A stretch of DNA of 64,000 bases. Source: an uncultured Chloroflexota bacterium. GTDB lineage: Bacteria > Chloroflexota > Dehalococcoidia > CAUJGQ01. A model generated the notes under the pieces. The model ran no database searches. It was not told the origin of the DNA and worked only from the letters and a program-made list of their open reading frames with translations. The stretch lies in NCBI GenBank assembly GCA_937879875.1, contig CALFMN010000021.1:65249-129248 (forward strand). The letters are read 5' to 3'. The translations under genes were made by a program, and so were the position numbers. Numbering within the stretch: the stretch's first letter is position 1; the number at the start of each line of letters is the position of its first letter. Shown here in pieces: positions 3,431 through 58,232 of the stretch.

Positions 3431-3596
3431 GGCGTCAAAACCTTACATCGTCCGAGGAGCCGCGGCCATGCCGGGCAAGGGCTATCGTAGCGTAGCCGCT
3501 GCGCGGTGTCGCGCGCGGAAGCGACCGCAACCCGGGTGCCCGCGTACGCAGCGCACGTCCGGCCCGAAGCACGCGGGGGCTGCAGCGAGCGTCGGG

Positions 3597-3836
3597 CTGG
3601 CGGGGCACCTAACCCTGCTTTGCCTGACGGCAAAGCTGTCCCTTCCCGAGACGGGAAAGGGACTTCTGGAGCGTTCCTATCGCCGTGCGACGGCGGCGGG
3701 ATCACGGTGTCGTCGCGGGACACGCGGCTGGGTTGTCTCCCGTCCGTTTGTGTGTCCTCTACCCAAACCCTTCCTGTGTCGGGAAGGGACAGGTTTGCCG
3801 TCAGGCAAAGCAGGGTTAGGTGCCCCGCCAGCCCGA
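3597..3836. repeat. MITE-like interspersed repeat, family 1 (TIR ...GGCACCTAACCCTG...; internal hairpin GTCCCTTCCCG-N-CGGGAAGGGAC), full copy A
   Basis: About 45-bp near-perfect terminal inverted repeat (cgtcgggctggcggggcacctaaccctgctttgcctgacggcaaa / reverse complement) flanking about 130 bp. The same element recurs at 48398-48640. Confidence 0.8.
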
Positions 3837-3839
3837 CGT

Positions 3840-5243
3840 TCAGACGGCGAGCCGGTTGATGCCGTCGAAGGCGGCGACTTTGTACGCTTCGGCAAGAGTG
3901 GGATAGTTGAAGACCGTATGCACGAAGTAGTCGATCGGGCCGTGGTTGGCCAGCACCGCCTGGCCGACGTGCACCAGCTCGCTCGCGCCTTCGCCGATGA
4001 TATGCACGCCCAGCAGCTCGCGCGTGTAGATGTCGAAGATCAGCTTCAACATGCCGGTGGTGTCGCCGATAATCAGGCCGCGGGCGATCTCGCGGTAGAG
4101 CGCCTTGCCGACCTCGTACGGCACGCCGGCCGCCGTCAGCTCTTCCTCGGTGCGGCCCACCATCGAAATCTCCGGAATCGTGTAGATGCCGTAGGGGAAG
4201 TGATCCGGGCTGCTGGAGAGCGGCGCGCCGAAGGCGTGACAGGCCGCCAGCCGGCCCTGCTCCGACGACGTTGAGGCGAGGCTGGGAAAGCCGGTCAGGT
4301 CGCCCACGGCGTAGATGTGCGGCACGGCCGTCTGGTACTGCTCGTTGACGGCGATGCGGCCGCGCGCATCGGCCTCAAGCCCCGCCGCCGGCAAGTTGAG
4401 CAGCGCTGTGGCGCCGTCGCGGCCCGCGCAGTAGAGCACGGCTTCGCTGCCGATCTGCTTGCCGCTGGCGGTATGGATGCGTACCGAGCCGTCCTCGGCG
4501 ATCAGGACGCTCTCGACCGTCTCGCCCAGGCGCAGCACCACGCGCTGGTTGCGCAGGTGATACTCCAGCGTCTCCACGATCTCGCGGTCGACGAAGGGCA
4601 GCAGCGTCGGCCGCGCATCGATCAGGGTTACACGCACGCCGAGCGTGGCGAAGGTCGAGGCATACTCGCAGCCGATCACGCCGGCGCCGACGACGGCCAA
4701 CGAGCGCGGAATGCGTTCCATCTGCAAAATGCCGTCGCTGTCGAGCACGCGCTTCTCATCGAAGGCGACCTGTGCGGGCCGCGCCGGCGTGGTGCCCGTG
4801 GCGATCACGACCGTTTCCGCCGTGACTTCGCGCCCGCCGCGGTGGCGCTGATCCTCGATGTGGACGGTGTGCGGATCGGAGAAGCTGGCCGTGCCGCTCA
4901 AAACTTCGATGCCGTTGCGCCGCATCTGGTGGCGAATCACGTCGGCCTCGTGCTGAATCACGTACTTGCAGCGCGAGAGCAGGTCCGCCATCGTGATCGC
5001 GTCTTTGACGGCGTAGCTGTCGCCATAGAAGCCACGCTCGCGGTAGCCGGAGAGGTAGACCGCGGCCTCGCGCAGCGTCTTGCTCGGAATCGTGCCGGTA
5101 TTGATGCAGACGCCGCCGAGGTCTTCGCTGCGCTCGACGATGCCGACGTGCTTCTGCAGCTTGGCGCCCTGCACGGCGGCGCGCTGGCCCGCCGGTCCCG
5201 TGCCGATCACCAGCAGATCGTAGTCGCAGCTTGTGGCTTCCAT
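3840..5243 (-). CDS. sthA: Soluble pyridine nucleotide transhydrogenase (SthA-like; FAD pyridine nucleotide-disulfide oxidoreductase class I)
   Basis: DYDLLVIGTGPAG Rossmann motif. C-terminal stretch IYAVGDLTGFPSLAS..QGR..A...IYTIPEISMVGRTEEELTAAGVPYEVG...FNYPTLAEAYKVAA is near-identical in pattern to SthA. Start taken at MEATS (5243) rather than ORF start 5330. Confidence 0.8.
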   Translation of the reverse strand: MEATSCDYDLLVIGTGPAGQRAAVQGAKLQKHVGIVERSEDLGGVCINTGTIPSKTLREAAVYLSGYRERGFYGDSYAVKDAITMADLLSRCKYVIQHEADVIRHQMRRNGIEVLSGTASFSDPHTVHIEDQRHRGGREVTAETVVIATGTTPARPAQVAFDEKRVLDSDGILQMERIPRSLAVVGAGVIGCEYASTFATLGVRVTLIDARPTLLPFVDREIVETLEYHLRNQRVVLRLGETVESVLIAEDGSVRIHTASGKQIGSEAVLYCAGRDGATALLNLPAAGLEADARGRIAVNEQYQTAVPHIYAVGDLTGFPSLASTSSEQGRLAACHAFGAPLSSSPDHFPYGIYTIPEISMVGRTEEELTAAGVPYEVGKALYREIARGLIIGDTTGMLKLIFDIYTRELLGVHIIGEGASELVHVGQAVLANHGPIDYFVHTVFNYPTLAEAYKVAAFDGINRLAV

Positions 5244-7751: not shown

Positions 7752-7925
7752 CGAGACTGCGGCCCTCTATCCCCCTTCCCCTTTCTCCCAATCCTGGGAG
7801 AAAGGGGCGATCCCGGGTTAGAGCGATCCGATCTGCGAACGGCTAACCGCAAACCGATCGGATCGCCCGACGCGGGGTCGCCCCTCGCCCAGGATTGGGC
7901 GAGGGGACGGGGGTGAGGGCCGACT
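7752..7925. repeat. Interspersed palindromic repeat, family 2 (arms GGCCCTCACCCCC...CCCCTTTCTCCCAATCCTGGGAGAAAGGGGCGATCC), full copy
   Basis: Each arm is itself a hairpin (cccctttctccca/tgggagaaagggg). The two arms are inverted copies around a roughly 45-bp core. Full copies also at 30703-30880 and 57950-58125. Confidence 0.8.
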
Positions 7926-17459: not shown

Positions 17460-17471
17460 CGGAGGCGTTCG

Positions 17472-17525
17472 GCCCGCCCCAGGATCGTCTCCTTCGCCCA
17501 GGATTGGGCGAAGCAACGGTCTTGA
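17472..17525. repeat. Family-2 repeat, solo right arm (caggatcgtctccttcgcccaggattgggcgaag...)
   Basis: Matches the right arm of the 57950-58125 copy. Confidence 0.6.
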
Positions 17526-24657: not shown

Positions 24658-24879
24658 CCTCGCGCCGGGCGACTTGCGCGAAAAGGTTTACCGGCCGCCG
24701 AAGTATCCCGCCGCGTCGCAACGATGTCAAGACGGCTGAAGGGTGAAGGGTGAGAGGTGAAGCGTGAACGTGCTGCATGGTTGGCCCGTACTCTGGTGTA
24801 CGACTCGCCGCTCGCCTGCACCCTGCACCCTCAACCCTGGCCCTGGCGTGTAGAATGCAGGCGCTCGCGGCGGGCCTAG

Positions 24880-25085
24880 CCCTGGTTTCGCACACGAAAC
24901 CTGTCCCTTTCCGACGCGGAAAGGGTTTTGGCTGCGGAGGACTCCCGACGCCAATCCTGCCTGCGCGGCAACCGAGGAGTCGCCGCGCGCCCGCAGGCCT
25001 GATCACGCGATCAGCGGTCACATGATCGAAAGGTGGAAAATCCTCCCAACGAGAAAACCCTTCCCGTGTCGGGAAGGGAGACGCG
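24880..25085. repeat. Degenerate copy of family-1 MITE (hairpin gtccctttccgacgcggaaaggg...cccttcccgtgtcgggaaggga)
   Basis: Internal hairpin modules recognisable. Outer CACCTAACCCTG termini absent. Confidence 0.5.
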
Positions 25086-25134
25086 GCGCTTTTTAGATCG
25101 CCGCTCCACGGCGATGAGGGCGCGGCGGGGTTAG

Positions 25135-25905
25135 GTGACGGTGCAGGTGGACGAGTTCGATCTGAAGGGCGAGGTTGCGCTGGTGACGGGCGGCAACGGC
25201 GGCATCGGCCGCGGTATCGCCGTCGGGCTGGCCCGGGCGGGCGCCGATATTGTGATCGCGGCGCGCGACGAGGCGAAGACGGCGGACGCCCGCGCCGAGG
25301 TCGAGGCGCTGGGCCGTCGCTGCGTCGGTGTGCGCTGCGACGTGAGCCGCCGCGCCGAGCTGCAGGCCGCGGTACAGATCGCGCGCGATGCGCTGGGCAA
25401 GCTCAGCATCGTCGTGGCGAACGCGGGCATCGCCGTGCGCGGGGCGCCGCAGTCGCTGGCGGAAGAAGATTGGCTGCGGGTGATCGGCACGAACCTGAAC
25501 GGCGTCTTCTTCGCCGCGCAGACGGCGCATCCGGCGCTTGTGGCGAACGGCGGCGGCAAGGTGATCACGATCGGCTCCGAGTACTCATTGTTCGGCAGCC
25601 CGACCGTGCCGTCGTATTCGGCCAGCAAAGGCGGCGTGGTGCAACTGACGAAGTCGCTGGCGGTGGCCTGGGCGCGGGACAACATCCAGGTCAACTGCAT
25701 CATCCCCGGCTGGGTGCGCACCGACCTGACCGCACCGGTCATGGAAGACAAAGAGAGCTACGAGCGCATCGTCGGCCGCACGCCGGCGCGCCGCTTCGCC
25801 GAGCCCGAAGAGCTGGCCGGCGCCGCCGTCTTCCTCGCCTCGCGCGCCTCGAATTTTGTGACCGGCCAGAGCCTGGTGGTGGACGGCGGCTACTCGATCG
25901 CCTGA
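25135..25905 (+). CDS. SDR family oxidoreductase
   Basis: ALVTGGNGGIGRGIA...NAG...S..Y.ASK. GTG start at 25135. Confidence 0.85.
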   Translation: MTVQVDEFDLKGEVALVTGGNGGIGRGIAVGLARAGADIVIAARDEAKTADARAEVEALGRRCVGVRCDVSRRAELQAAVQIARDALGKLSIVVANAGIAVRGAPQSLAEEDWLRVIGTNLNGVFFAAQTAHPALVANGGGKVITIGSEYSLFGSPTVPSYSASKGGVVQLTKSLAVAWARDNIQVNCIIPGWVRTDLTAPVMEDKESYERIVGRTPARRFAEPEELAGAAVFLASRASNFVTGQSLVVDGGYSIA

Positions 25906-30702: not shown

Positions 30703-30880
30703 CGCTCGGCCCTCTATCCCCCTACCCCTTTCCCCCAATCCTGGAGGGAAAGGGGCGATCCTGGGTTGGAGCGATCCGATACTGGGCAGGGTTAACCGTG
30801 CCGGCCACGGAACGCCCGACCCAAGATCGCCCCTCGCCCAGGATTGGGAGAGGGGAAGGGGGTGAGGGCCGACGCCCGCG
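30703..30880. repeat. Family-2 palindromic repeat, full copy
   Basis: ggccctctatccccctacccctttcccccaatcctggagggaaaggggcgatcc ...core... gatcgcccctcgcccaggattgggagaggggaagggggtgagggcc. Confidence 0.8.
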
Positions 30881-32026: not shown

Positions 32027-33090
32027 TCACGGCGCGATTGCGGGATAGAGATGCTGCAAGCGAATGCGGGCAGCGGCGGTGGTGAAGCGCCAGCGGATGG
32101 CGGTGGTGCCGGCGTTGCGCTCGGCCTCCCAGGCGGCGACCTCAGCGGTGAGCGTGTCGGCATCGGCGATGCGCCGGTCCAGGCACTGGCGGCTGAGGAT
32201 GCTGCACTCAATCTCGGCCATGTTCAGCCACGACCCGTGCGGCGGCGTGTGATGCAGCTCCAGCTTATCCAGCAGGCGCGTGGCCTCGGCCGGTGGGAAG
32301 GCCTGGTACAGCGCCGCCCCACTATGCGTGTTCAGGTTGTCCAGCACCAGCACGAGGCGCTCGGCCTCGGGGTAGTGGACCTCGACCAGGTCTTTGATGA
32401 CGTGGGCGCAGTCGACCGCCGTGCGCCGCGCGGTGACCGTCACGTGCCGCCAACCGGCAAGCGGCTCACAGACCACAAAGAGGTTGGCCACGCCGTTGCG
32501 CACGTCCTCATCGTCCTCGCGGGCGGGCTGGCCCGGCTGGACCGGGCGTGGGGGCTGGACCGCGCCCACCAGGTGCTTGCTGGTCTCGTCCAGACAGACC
32601 TGCGGACGCCGGGGATCCTGGGGCCGGTGATAGACATCCAGCACGTCCTCCAGCTGGCAGACCAAGGCGGCACTGCCCTGCGGCGGCAGGCACCAGCGCG
32701 TGTCTGCCAGGGCTTCAGCACGTTGTTTTGCGCGTGCGCCGTACGGTTTCGTACGCGATCGCCTCGACGAGGTTGAGTTCGACCAGGCGCTGGGCGACCA
32801 GGCGCAAGGTCCAGCCCCTCCTCCACGAAGCGGCGGCGCACGCGCTCGACGGTGTCGCTGCTCACACCGGCGGTGGCGGCGATCGCGGCGTCGAAGCGGC
32901 CGGACTGCCCGGGCGGCGCATCGGCCAGCAGCAGGATGCGGGCGTGCTGGAGCGTGCGGGCGGCATGCGTGCCGCTGTGCAGGAACTGCTGCAGATGCTC
33001 CCGCTCAGCAGAGGTGAGGGTGACACGATAGCGTTTCGTTCGCATGCGCCCAGCATGCCAGCGCCTTACCATAACGGGCAAGGCGGCCGT
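32027..33090 (-). mobile_element. IS630-family insertion sequence (copy 1); transposase broken into N-terminal HTH and C-terminal DDE ORFs by frameshifts
   Basis: N-terminus MRTKRYRVTLTSAEREHLQQF...VSSDTVERVRRRFVEEGLD (IS630 HTH). C-terminus ...DETSKHL...LVLVLDNLNTHS...HHTPPHGSWLNMAEIECSIL...LYP (DDE domain, ORF 32027..32665). At least two frame changes in between. Confidence 0.75.
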
Positions 33091-38029: not shown

Positions 38030-39805
38030 GGTGAAGGCGAGCCGGTGACGCTAGCGACGTGATGCCAACCACGATCGACGCCGCTGACCTCCTACCCACT
38101 GGCTCGTAGTTCCGTGTCGAGGCGCTGAGCCGCACGGCGGACGCGAGCACCCTGCCCCTCACCAGTCCCCAACCGACCGCGGCCTGCCTGCGGTGCCGCG
38201 CGCCCTCGGCCGCCGTCCATAGTCGCTACCAACGCACGCTCGCCGACCTGCTCTGGGTCCGCCTACCCGTACGCCTCGACCTCCACGTCCGCAAGTTCTT
38301 CTGCCGCGTCTCCACCTGTACGCGGCAGATCTTCACCGAGCGGCTCCCCACGCTCGTTGCCCCCTCTGCGCGGCGCACGCTGGGCCTGACCGCAGCGCTC
38401 TGGCTGGTGGCGCTGGCCCCTGGTGGCGCAGCGGGCGCCCGGGTCGTCGCCGGGTTGGTGATGGGCACGAGCCCTGACACCTTGCTGCGGCTCATTCAGA
38501 CCGCGCCAATCAGCAACCGCGAGCCGACCCGCGTGCTGGGCATCGATGATTGGTCCTGGCGCCGCGGCCTGCGCTTCGGGACGATCCTCGTCGACCTCGA
38601 ACGGCATTGCCCGGTGGACCTCCTGCCCGATCGTGCGGTCGAGCCCATCGTGGCATGGCTGAAGGCGCATCCCGGTATTGAAGTCATCAGCCGCGACCGC
38701 GCCCAGTGCTACGCCGAGGCGGCCAGGCAAGGGGCACCGGATGCCGTGCAGGTCGCCGACCGCTGGCATCTCCTCAAGAATCTGGCGGAGGCGCTGGAGC
38801 GCTGCCTGCTGCGCGCTGCCAGCAGCCGGAAAGTGGCCGCCCAGCACACCGCCGACCGCGACCCGCCGCTCCAGAGTTACCCGGACGCGGACTGCGTCCC
38901 CTGGGAACAGCGGGCCGAGGAGGCCAGCCAGGCGAAGCACCAGGCAGCCGTGGAGCGCTATCAGCGCATCCGCAGCCTGCATGCCGCCGGGGCCGACATC
39001 GCCGACATCGCCCGCACCGTCGGCGTCTCCCGCGTCACGGTGTATCGCTATCTCCGGCTCACGGCGCTTCCTGAACGAAAACATTCCCGCTGCCGGCGGC
39101 CAGTGCTGGACCCCTACAAGGACTACCTGCTGCGCCGCTGGGAGGAGGGCTGCCACGTCAAACTCACCCTCTTCCGCGAAATTCAGGCGCAGGGCTATGC
39201 CTTCTCGGCGACGAACGTCTTCCGCTTCCTCAACCGGACGGCGCGAGCGCGGAGCCGCGACCCGGTCCAGGTCGTCCCACCCCCGGCCAGCGCCGTGCCC
39301 ACGGCGCGCCAGGTCGCCGGACTGTTCGTCGCCCGGCCCGAGCGGCTGGCGAAGGACGACCGGGCCTCTCTCACGCGCTTGACGGCTGGGGAGCCGAGCC
39401 TGGCAATGGCGTATGCCCTCACCCAGGCGTTCGGCCGCATGCTGCGCGAGCGTCAGGGCGAGCAGCTCGATGACTGGCTCACGCAGGCGAAAGCGAGCGG
39501 GGTGAAGGAGCTGGCCGCCTATGCCTGCGGCCTGGAAGCGGACGAGGCGGCGGTCACGGCGGGGCTGACGCTCGCCTGGAGCAACGGCCAGACCGAGGGC
39601 CACGTCCATCGCCTGAAGTTGCTCAAGCGCCAGAGCTACGGTCGCGCCGGCTTCGATCTCCTGCGCCGGCGCGTCCTGCTCGCTGCGTGAGCGATCAGCG
39701 CAGGCGCGACGCGGTTGACCGTTGCCTGCTCACCGCGATTCACCAAAAGACCGGAAGACCCAGCATCATTTGGCGAGGTGTGCAACGCCGCTCGCTCTTC
39801 GCCCT
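38030..39805 (+). mobile_element. ISL3-family insertion sequence; transposase 38062..39690 carries an in-frame TAG at codon 16 (38107-38109)
   Basis: MPTTIDAADLLPTGS*FRVEAL...PTAACLRCRAPSAAVHSRYQRTLADL (zinc-finger N-terminus) ...LGIDDWSWRRGLRFGTILVDLERHCPVDLLPDR...W.NGQTEGHVHRLKLLKRQSYGRAGFDLLRRRVL (ISL3 C-terminus). Imperfect terminal IRs GGTGAAGGCGAGCCGG (38030) / CCGCTCGCTCTTCGCC (39788). Confidence 0.75.
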
Positions 39806-40830: not shown

Positions 40831-41073
40831 CTAAGGCAGCGGCTCCGCCTGCTTGAGGGCGCGCTCGTCGAAAGCGGCGCGGGCGGAGAGCACCTGCTCG
40901 ATGTTCGCCTCCGCCCACGCCCGCAGCGCTCCGATCGGCGCGATCAGCGTCTCGTCCGGCGGCGTGAGCGCATACTCGACGCTCGACGGCGTGGTGGGAT
41001 AGACGCGCCGGCTCACCAGCCCGTCACGTTCGAGGTTGCGCAGAAGATGCTGACGCAGACGCTGCGGTTTCAA
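40831..41073 (-). pseudogene. HxlR-type HTH regulator, C-terminal fragment only (TTG start; first ~50 aa absent)
   Basis: ...RQHLLRNLERDGLVSRRVYPTTPSSVEYALT matches the HxlR wing/recognition region. A stop codon lies two codons upstream of the TTG. Confidence 0.45.
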
Positions 41074-41169
41074 TCCTCACTCGGCGACGCCGCTGGGTGC
41101 GACACGTGGCACTTGCTTCACTATAGTGAGTATACCGGACGGATGGCGTCCCGAAACGGAGGGTTTCAC

Positions 41170-44128: not shown

Positions 44129-44575
44129 GAAGCTTCCTCCTCGGCGGTCGTGCCACCGCCGCCATGGCCCGACAGCGGCTGAACAGACCGTGAGGAGGTC
44201 TGCGCCTTCGGCAACCCGGCTGCCTGTGCCGTTCCGCTGGCGTGCCGCCAGGGAAACGACCGAAGGCCCGTGGCTTTGCGTCCCCGCCTTTCGGCGGGTT
44301 TGCCTTTGTCGGACGTTCTGTAAAGCGACCCGGCAGCCGGTGCTACCTGTGGTCCAGGTGCAGTAATCGCGTGGCCGCGGGTGCTGCAAGAGGGTTGCCG
44401 GACAGTGGTGGGCCGGGCGTTACTGAAATGTTACAACCGGCAAACGGACCATCGGCCCGCCGGCAGAGGTCTTCCGCGGACAAACGAATCGGCCCGAAGC
44501 CCGGTGACGGGCTTCGGGCCGGCGCCGTTGCCAGCGTTACGGCGAGAGCAGGTCCGTGGAGAGGGCGCTGGCCTG

Positions 44576-48397: not shown

Positions 48398-48640
48398 AGC
48401 TTGCGAGGCACCTAACCCTGACTTCCCTTGCGGGAAGTCTGTCCCTTCCCGAGGCGGGAAAGGGACTTTTGGAGCGCTCCCGACAACGCCGGACGGCGGC
48501 GGGGTCTGGGTGTCCCTGTGGGACACGCGGCGGGCTGGCCTCCCAGCCCTATGTGCGTCCTCGAACCCCACCCTTCCCGGCTCGGGAAGGGACAGACCTG
48601 GCTTCAGCCAGGTCAGGGTTAGGTGCCGCGCGCGGCGAAC
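48398..48640. repeat. MITE-like interspersed repeat, family 1, full copy B
   Basis: Starts cacctaaccctga and ends tcagggttaggtgcc. The internal sequence aligns with copy A (3597-3836), including hairpins gtcccttcccgaggcgggaaagggac and cccttcccggctcgggaaggg. Confidence 0.8.
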
Positions 48641-57949: not shown

Positions 57950-58125
57950 TCGGCCCTCACCCCCGTCCCCTCTCCCAATCGTCCAGATCGCGCGGAGCGC
58001 GATGTCAGATGGCGAGGGGCGATCCTGGGTTGCTAACGCGAGAGGGCGTCGGGTTAACCGAAGGTTGATTGGAACGCTTCAGGCAGGATCGTCTCCTTCT
58101 CCCAGGATTGGGAGCCAGAGCGTAG
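57950..58125. repeat. Family-2 palindromic repeat, full copy
   Basis: ggccctcacccccgtcccctctcccaatcgtccag ...core... gcaggatcgtctccttctcccaggattgggag. Confidence 0.75.
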
Positions 58126-58232
58126 CGCAACCGTCGGAGACGTTCAAAGCACAGGAGAGGATGAGGGCCGAACGCCGCGAACGGGCGCCATGGTCGTGAT
58201 GCGTCAAACGTGAGCTGCGGCGGTCTGCCCGG

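Follow-up and report, generated by a model that had tools for sequence, protein, structure and literature searches.

Introduction

Two copies of a short palindromic sequence and a third, degenerate copy lie between genes in a 64,000-nucleotide stretch of DNA from an uncultured Chloroflexota bacterium (GenBank contig CALFMN010000021.1, positions 65,249 to 129,248; hereafter the window). The question raised by this locus is what kind of element they represent. An earlier note, made from the letters of the window alone, called them a MITE-like element (MITE, miniature transposable element with inverted repeats) with terminal inverted repeats of about 45 bp. The element, termed Family 1, fits that description only in part. 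Its "terminal inverted repeat" is built from separate local hairpins in modular fashion, and one of these hairpins covaries. Its copies have no target-site duplication, and the flanks of some carry inverted duplications of unique DNA. With a probability of about 0.5, Family 1 is a family of non-autonomous, hairpin-ended palindromic DNA repeats that resemble dimers of the repetitive extragenic palindrome (REP) and are mobilized in trans through single-stranded hairpins.

Copies in the window

A covariance model, R1, was built from 108 end modules and used to search the whole window with filters off. R1 gives exactly six ends, which form three elements. The ends are as follows:

Copy 1: 3601-3664(-), 83.7 bits; 3764-3827(+), 81.1 bits
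Copy 2: 48404-48467(-), 79.3 bits; 48567-48630(+), 81.2 bits
Copy 3, degenerate: 24868-24929(-), 58.1 bits; 25058-25136(+), 28.7 bits

Because R1 places ends there, the conserved units are 3601-3827, 48404-48630, and 24868-25137. The two good copies, first reported at 3597-3836 and 48398-48640, are real and lie close to those limits. The degenerate copy was also recovered, with a true span wider than the 24880-25085 originally given. The motif CACCTAACCCTG has four exact matches in the window, at 3606, 3811(-), 48409, and 48614(-), and eight matches with up to two mismatches, where 1.9 are expected by chance. CGGGAAGGGAC is found at both ends of copies 1 and 2, far above chance. Copy 1 folds much more stably than shuffled sequence (z = -15.7 and -14.3 as RNA, for the two strands), as do copy 2 (z = -11.3 as DNA) and copy 3 (z = -4.9).

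All three copies are intergenic and have the neighbors that were originally described. Copy 1 begins 1 nt past the stop codon of sthA and is upstream of an open reading frame (ORF) of 132 aa. Copy 2 is flanked by a DMFA2_C-domain gene and a PD40 gene and lies about 85 nt upstream of the PD40 gene, and copy 3 separates divergent LacI and SDR genes. The window is 100% identical to metagenome contigs of ENA ERZ27245795 and JGI 3300022557. The nearest named homologues of its SthA are 68-70% identical and come from Anaerolineae, Chloroflexales, and other Chloroflexi, which makes the host an uncultured relative of Chloroflexota, with a G+C content of 68.75%.

Anatomy of the element

Each end of Family 1 is composed of four parts. 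Going inward, these are a terminus, a variable hairpin, a CTGT linker, and a conserved hairpin. The terminus is the 17-nt sequence CGGGGCACCTAACCCTG, and, by the information content of the flanks, its CGGGG is no less conserved than the remainder of the element. The conserved hairpin is GTCCCTTCCCG-loop-CGGGAAGGGAC, with a 3' arm of CGGGAA(A)GGGAC, and is nearly invariant, as is the terminus. The variable hairpin is 16-18 nt long and keeps its pairing while its sequence changes, with 58 alleles among 106 distinct ends.

The features of the window copies are listed below.

Copy 1
3590..3600, left copy-specific palindromic extension CGTCGGGCTGG, which pairs with 3828-3838 and is absent from copy 2
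3601..3827, +, conserved unit, CGGGG to CCCCG, A side on the left (R1 ends, alignments A1 and A2)
3601..3617, +, left terminus CGGGGCACCTAACCCTG (motif count, flank information content)
3618..3635, +, variable hairpin, A side, CTTTGCC-TGAC-GGCAAAG (covarying helix: A2 columns 32-38 with 46-52; A3 helix 2)
3638..3663, +, conserved hairpin, A side, GTCCCTTCCCG-AGA-CGGGAAAGGGAC, with an extra A in the 3' arm
3664..3767, +, asymmetric interior with motifs GGAGCGTTCC, GACGGCGGCGGG, and GTGTC..GGGACAC, which sets the orientation
3768..3790, +, conserved hairpin, B side, CCCTTCCTGTGTCGGGAAGGG then AC
3793..3810, +, variable hairpin, B side, GTTTGCC-GTCA-GGCAAAG (A3 covariation)
3811..3827, +, right terminus CAGGGTTAGGTGCCCCG
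3828..3838, copy-specific extension of the palindrome on the right, CCAGCCCGACG, ending 1 nt away from the stop codon of sthA (3840-3842)

Copy 2
48404..48630, +, conserved unit (R1, Whalefall-1 matches, DNA fold)
48404-48420, +, left terminus
48421-48438, +, variable hairpin A, ACTTCCC-TTGC-GGGAAGT
48441-48466, conserved hairpin A
48467-48570, interior
48571-48593, conserved hairpin B
48596-48613, variable hairpin B, ACCTGGC-TTCA-GCCAGGT
48614-48630, right terminus

Copy 3
24868..25137, +, degenerate copy (R1 ends, fold z)
24873-24884, terminus GGCCTAGCCCTG
24885-24900, variable hairpin
24903-24925, conserved hairpin
25058-25078, B-side conserved hairpin
25083-25104, hairpin
25126-25137, terminus CGGGGTTAGGTG

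The inverted repeat of about 45 bp is borne out by copy 1, where the arms match over about 72 nt. It does not hold for copy 2, where the inverted repeats are made up of the 17-nt terminus and the 25-nt conserved hairpin only, and the 18-nt hairpins in between differ from end to end. Because the two variable hairpins of copy 2 differ, the variable hairpins are local structures and not part of the inverted repeat. Their covariation is strong. In alignment A3, both partners vary at six of seven pairs, and pairing is kept in 96% of cells. Compensatory cells number 208, compared to 83 in shuffles, and none of 500 shuffles reaches 208. The signal collapses once the partners are slid.

The interior is about 100 nt long, asymmetric, and diverged. 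It reads CTTCTGGAGCGYTCC..GACGGCGGCGGGG on the A side and ..TCCTCGAACCCCA on the B side. Oriented by this interior, 58 copies align cleanly (A2). No conserved structure is found in the interior on either strand, and its one small hairpin breaks instead of covarying, so a structured RNA in this region was rejected.

Distribution in related genomes

A metagenome collection was scanned with the pattern TCGGGAAGGGACAG-N18-CAGGGTTAGGTG. The scan returned 91 loci from two JGI samples. The organism behind these loci and the window have one gene in common, about 78% identical in nucleotide sequence. Among the loci are 65 unique full copies and about 35 end-variants. The modal length of the full element is 215 nt from CACC to GGTG, and the overall size is about 215-227 nt. 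In 812 kb of loci selected for carrying the element, about 215 end modules score at least 35 bits. The window itself has three copies in 64 kb, a density that would extrapolate to a few hundred copies per genome. A scan of a genome collection gave 14 loci, half of which are ordinary terminators. Neither a scan of viral contigs nor a distant search of a plasmid collection found the element, and a literature search for the motif strings returned nothing relevant.

All 51 assessable copies are intergenic. Fourteen are between divergent genes and nine between convergent genes, while those in tandem contexts divide 20 to 8 by orientation. Identity across the interior averages 68.5%, the nearest-neighbor median is 77%, and no two copies are identical.

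The ends are also shuffled. Both ends share the entire variable hairpin in 9 of 53 elements, where 1.2 are expected. Some variant B ends have the form GGGAG-hairpin-CGGGGTTAGG, and nearly all of 40 apparent "solo" ends belong to full elements with a variant B end. Other variants include palindromic A-A forms of 311-339 nt and forms shortened to about 150 nt. In some elements, a module (CCAGAGCGCAGCGCAACCGTCGGAGAC.., CCAGAGCG(C/T)AGCGCAACCGTCGGAGAC..) about 31-35 nt long takes the place of part of the conserved hairpin's 3' arm. It sits in the 3' arm of the subterminal hairpin both in Family 1 and in a second repeat family described below. It is found in the window at about 58124-58160 and in loci L024, L027, L032, L033, L049, L073, L074, L077, L084, L086, L091, and L102, and is repeated two to three times in tandem in L033 and L077.

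Two further observations concern sequences near the element. In L065, a Family 1 terminus is interrupted within its TTAG by another element, at about 200-290, which has inverted ends of its own (GAGCGTGTCTGAAAAATG...). Short intergenic tandem runs of heptamer-like units, e.g., GGGTGAA/GGGTGAG opposite CACCCTG/CACCCTC, or (GCATCAG)n, are often located near elements. They occur in the window at 24740-24850, in L017 at 1600-1645, and in the flanks in L042, L071, L096, and L104.

Flanks and junctions

Target-site duplications were expected at the insertion sites in the earlier note. Among the 65 copies, none is found when repeats 3-5 nt long are sought at every offset from 0 to 20 nt, because direct repeats across the element are no more common than with shuffled partners. 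Inverted flank matches, unlike direct ones, are in excess. The inverted repeat enters the flanks by at least 10 nt in about 15 of 63 copies and is always contiguous with the end of the element. The longest such extension, 27 nt, is in L109, and those of L107 and L063 measure 24 nt. In copy 1 of the window it runs 16 nt past CACC/GGTG, and the palindrome including its extensions spans 3590-3838. The long arms are found nowhere else in about 1 Mb and are therefore unique DNA that was duplicated in inverted orientation. Insertion into a second repeat family was rejected as the source of the palindromic flanks for the same reason.

Two observations point to CGGGG-C as a joining site. In L106, a partial A-half is joined exactly at the CGGGG-CACC junction to a complete element. 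In addition, about 12 flanks resemble the interior up to GGCGGCGGGG.

A proposed REP-dimer-like DNA repeat

REP dimers are high-copy extragenic palindromes arranged in inverted pairs, with conserved spacers and complementary changes in their stems (PMC3733652). They form homo- and heterodimers and mosaic clusters, and are found inserted within palindromes, e.g., in the Chloroflexi member Thermomicrobium roseum (PMC3733652). Family 1 shares most of these traits. Its copies are high-copy intergenic pairs of inverted palindromes around a spacer that can fold as one long hairpin or as local hairpins. Like REP dimers, it has no target-site duplication, shows complementary stem changes, occurs as homo- and heterodimers and in mosaic clusters, and has flanking palindromes. 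Because target-site duplications are missing, no autonomous partner was found in the loci searched, the hairpins are modular with one that covaries, and the flanks are often inverted duplicates, Family 1 is closer to elements of the REP-dimer, REPIN, or BIME type than to a transposon of DDE-transposase origin. The REP, REPIN, and BIME elements are its best functional analogue; membership in that group is not established.

Several differences from the classical REP are observed. The end of Family 1 is about 60 nt long, with two hairpins and a 17-nt terminus, whereas a REP is a single unit of 20-40 nt. The spacer is about 100 nt. REP systems have a single-copy RAYT gene (TnpA-REP) flanked by the repeats, a REPtron; no such gene was found for Family 1 in the 1.06 Mb searched by tblastn. 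The sequences adjacent to the hairpins are CCCTG, CTGT, ACAG, and CAGGG.

The ends of IS200/IS605 elements and their palindrome-associated derivatives, the PATEs, are a second point of comparison. REP dimers are mobilized by Y1 HUH enzymes, which recognize hairpins in single-stranded DNA, both those of REP sequences and those of IS200/IS605 ends (PMC6006769). Family 1 has in common with these elements subterminal hairpins, the lack of a target-site duplication, and a short conserved flank sequence, as CGGGG always precedes CACC. IS200/IS605 ends differ in that they do not form inverted repeats and have hairpins of invariable sequence, and no TnpA or TnpB gene is associated with Family 1.

A mechanism consistent with these traits can be proposed. 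Family 1 would have spread through the genome of an uncultured Chloroflexota-related lineage. Each end would be a recognition module composed of the 17-nt terminus, a spacer hairpin in which only pairing matters, and a hairpin of fixed sequence. The modules may be read as folded single-stranded DNA, e.g., on the lagging-strand template, by a structure-specific nuclease or recombinase supplied in trans. The leading candidate is an HUH Y1 enzyme of the RAYT or IS200 type. Cutting and rejoining at or beside the CGGGG-CACC junction would leave no target-site duplication. During replication, the inserted palindrome could fold back, and template switching would keep the arms of the variable hairpin complementary. 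The same process would copy unique flanking DNA to the other side and generate the copy-specific inverted flank duplications.

Template switching at quasipalindromes has reportedly been described in the work of Ripley and of Lovett. As inferred here, it would explain both the complementary hairpin arms and the outward growth of the palindrome. The covariation in the variable hairpin can equally well be explained by selection for pairing.

The putative enzyme was sought in several ways. A search of about 0.9 Mb gave neither a partner insertion sequence (IS) nor a Y1 transposase. The loci contain no multicopy IS-like ORF, and no autonomous IS with the termini of the element was found in the window or in 812 kb of loci. 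This is in line with the original remark that a partner transposase was not obvious. The stretch between paired ends holds no gene. Four pairs of "solo" ends 2.4-5.9 kb apart were considered as autonomous elements and rejected, since they enclose housekeeping genes (RecQ, PurL, an ABC-transporter binding protein). An ORF that recurs beside elements turned out to encode paralogous luciferase-like monooxygenases. A weak IS200-like tblastn match in L025 is inside a large unrelated ORF on the opposite strand and was also discarded.

Several points weigh against a REP-dimer-like mobile repeat. No enzyme was found, as tblastn with RayT-type and IS200 TnpA-type query sequences was empty in 1.06 Mb. 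The tetranucleotide by which classical REPs are defined, GT[AG]G or CGTC at the hairpin foot, is missing from Family 1; what comes closest is GTTAG, which is in the terminus, at the hairpin's far side. The divergence of the interiors indicates that the copies are old, and among those compared there is no sign of recent activity. The co-directional bias in tandem contexts is weak but not zero. The loci were picked by an exact end pattern, and the conservation of the ends is partly an effect of this ascertainment. The covariation of the variable hairpin is also what a structured RNA would show. Finally, no empty site and no presence/absence polymorphism, which the earlier note had asked for in relatives, was found among the relatives and loci examined. 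In the relative whose SthA is 85% identical, the DNA past sthA is unrelated; the relatives at 74% show no synteny, and L075 and the window have just one gene in common. That the element is mobile and where exactly it ends are for this reason inferred.

Related repeats and the Whalefall-1 motif

Family 2 is a second, related palindromic repeat family in the window. Its copies are located at 7765-7920, 30710-30870, and 57953-58170, with a fragment at about 17470-17520. The termini are GGCCCTC(A/T)(C/A)CCCC.. and ..GGGGGTGAGGGCC, the subterminal hairpin is CCCCTYTCCCAATCCTGGGAGARGGGG, and the center is GGTTAACC; the fold has z = -11. Family 2 is also present in loci L027, L034, and L100 and in the Chloroflexota metagenome-assembled genome (MAG) L004. 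Short relatives of 95-130 nt with ACCTAACCC and a CCCTTCCCG hairpin are found in Dehalococcoidia, other Chloroflexota, and "delta proteobacterium" MAGs.

At gathering thresholds, Rfam places no family on the window elements. In E-value mode, RF01762 (Whalefall-1) matches four of the six window ends at 25-30 bits (26.0, 30.3, 25.4), compared to a gathering threshold of 37 bits. The matches in copy 2 are at 48409-48462(-), with 30.3 bits, and 48572-48625(+), with 25.4 bits. The Whalefall-1 RNA motif was described by Weinberg et al. in 2010 and was rated a certain RNA from its covariation (PMC2864571).

The Whalefall-1 motif and the end of Family 1 share a pyrimidine/purine hairpin, ACAG, a covarying hairpin, and a G-rich tail, which is CAGGGTTAGGTG in Family 1 and AGAGGGAGGAC in Whalefall-1. 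When the Whalefall-1 seeds are taken with their published flanks (PMC2864571, supplementary file 53), they are the right ends of elements of about 150 nt. The left end, about 100 nt upstream, is made up of GUCCUCACCCUGA, a variable hairpin, CUGU, and then CCCUCC..GGAGGG. The seed wf2_Contig168 folds into the same five-part shape. The two differ in the sequences of their hairpins and termini, and Whalefall-1, which is filed as a small RNA, comes from a host low in G+C. The Rfam family probably describes one terminus of a repeat element.

The architecture is common to Family 1, Family 2, and the Whalefall-1 elements. A broader proposal, tentative and improbable as a whole, is that the three form one widespread and undescribed superfamily of hairpin-ended mobile elements without target-site duplication. 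Its members would be moved by a structure-reading single-stranded-DNA recombinase that needs the terminal CCTNACCC(Y)G and the pyrimidine/purine hairpin. The inverted flank duplication would then belong to the chemistry of insertion, through fold-back or hairpin-primed joining, and not to a later replication artefact.

Alternative explanations

One alternative is that the end modules are structured noncoding RNAs. They would be small RNAs similar to Whalefall-1, or untranslated-region elements that stabilize or process mRNA, a role suggested for REP and ERIC sequences, and would be kept by the host for their RNA function. The covariation, the sub-threshold Rfam matches, and the rating given to Whalefall-1 by its original authors are consistent with such a role, as are the location of copy 1 directly after the sthA stop codon and the 20:8 orientation bias. 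The arrangement of the modules argues against it. They are inverted at the two ends, so any transcript has one sense and one antisense copy, and no single transcript can carry both in the same sense. Fourteen of the 51 copies are between divergent genes, the interior has no conserved structure, and no promoter or terminator consensus was found among the copies. G-U wobbles are not in excess over A-C mismatches (9 vs 5), no strand is favored, and the inverted duplication of unique flanks is an event at the DNA level. Because copies occur in all gene contexts, and given the missing consensus, the lack of a G-T excess, the inverted modules, and the inverted flank duplication, the hairpins are more readily read as structures of single-stranded DNA, and an RNA function is unlikely.

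Equally unlikely is a family of DNA sites maintained by the host. Such sites would, e.g., be binding sites for nucleoid, gyrase, or a regulator, and recombination or gene conversion would account for most of their spread, with no dedicated transposase involved. Ends that are conserved while the interior diverges would be expected here, and the mosaic shuffling of modules, the two ends of an element that match more often than expected, and the failure to find a transposase also agree. The same architecture with a different sequence in distant taxa suggests, in contrast, a portable selfish system, and the end conservation is reduced as evidence by the ascertainment noted above. Moreover, we know of no mechanism other than transposition that puts units of about 227 nt at 100 or more unrelated intergenic sites.

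A classical MITE, i.e., an internally deleted IS moved by a DDE transposase that binds double-stranded inverted ends, is slightly less probable still. The description given in the earlier note stands in part. The element is small, dispersed in many intergenic copies, and has inverted ends, namely a 17-nt perfect inverted repeat and the inverted conserved hairpins. It has no coding capacity, as only spurious high-GC ORFs overlap its 215-227 nt, and is below the limit of about 600 bp for a MITE. Two transposase ORFs are present in the window, one of the ISL3 type at 38407-39690(+), with DDE_Tnp_ISL3 and HTH_7 domains, and one of the IS630 type at 32027-32665(-), with a DDE_3 domain. No link between these genes and the repeat family was seen in a check that did not include the IS termini.

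Other traits speak against it. The flanks are inverted and not direct duplicates, the direct duplications of 3-5 nt are missing at any offset, and no partner IS with the ends GGGGCACCTAACCCTG was found in about 0.9 Mb. A covarying hairpin inside the "terminal inverted repeat" is unexpected for a site bound as double-stranded DNA. Correia/NEMIS, Nezha, and the Tn3-derived TIMEs resemble Family 1 in size, inverted ends, lack of coding capacity, and intergenic dispersal. These elements leave direct target-site duplications and match the ends of known IS or transposons; in Family 1, such duplications are missing and no partner was found. The sequence GGGGCACCT resembles the ends of Tn21; a Tn3-type origin was rejected, as there is no 5-bp target-site duplication.

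The attC sites of integrons have the core consensus R'' = RYYYAAC and R' = GTTRRRY. That Family 1 consists of attC-like sites, scattered singly as folded single-stranded substrates of an integron-type tyrosine recombinase, is very improbable: the termini ACCTAAC and GTTAGGT fit this consensus, structure is kept while sequence varies, and some conserved hairpins have an extrahelical A, but the element is about 227 nt long with several branching hairpins, compared to a single attC hairpin of 57-141 nt, it has no L boxes beside the R boxes, its copies are more than 20 kb apart among housekeeping genes in both orientations without arrays or cassettes, and no integrase was found among the window ORFs checked in an intI search that was not exhaustive.

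Other features of the window

Two Rfam matches in the window lie outside the repeats. A c-di-GMP-I-GGC riboswitch aptamer is located at 44206-44313(-), with 78 bits compared to a gathering score of 59. A weak match to CRISPR-DR9 at 41067-41103(-), with 31 bits compared to a gathering score of 45, is within a glyoxalase-family ORF and is probably due to chance.

Implications

Whalefall-1 has been an orphan Rfam family, a small RNA of unspecified function, since 2010 and, it now seems, corresponds to one end of a palindromic DNA repeat. This serves as a warning that covariation in palindromic repeats is no proof of an RNA gene. Knowledge of the repeats is of use for the annotation of MAGs, for avoiding false calls of noncoding RNAs and ORFs, and for strain typing. 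The combination of inverted ends with no target-site duplication, a hairpin in which only pairing is kept, and copy-specific inverted flank duplications makes a concrete case for a new mobilization enzyme that recognizes hairpins. The same three features could serve to measure palindrome-driven template switching in natural genomes. Family 1 is an abundant repeat family in a poorly known Chloroflexota-related lineage, with relatives in other phyla.

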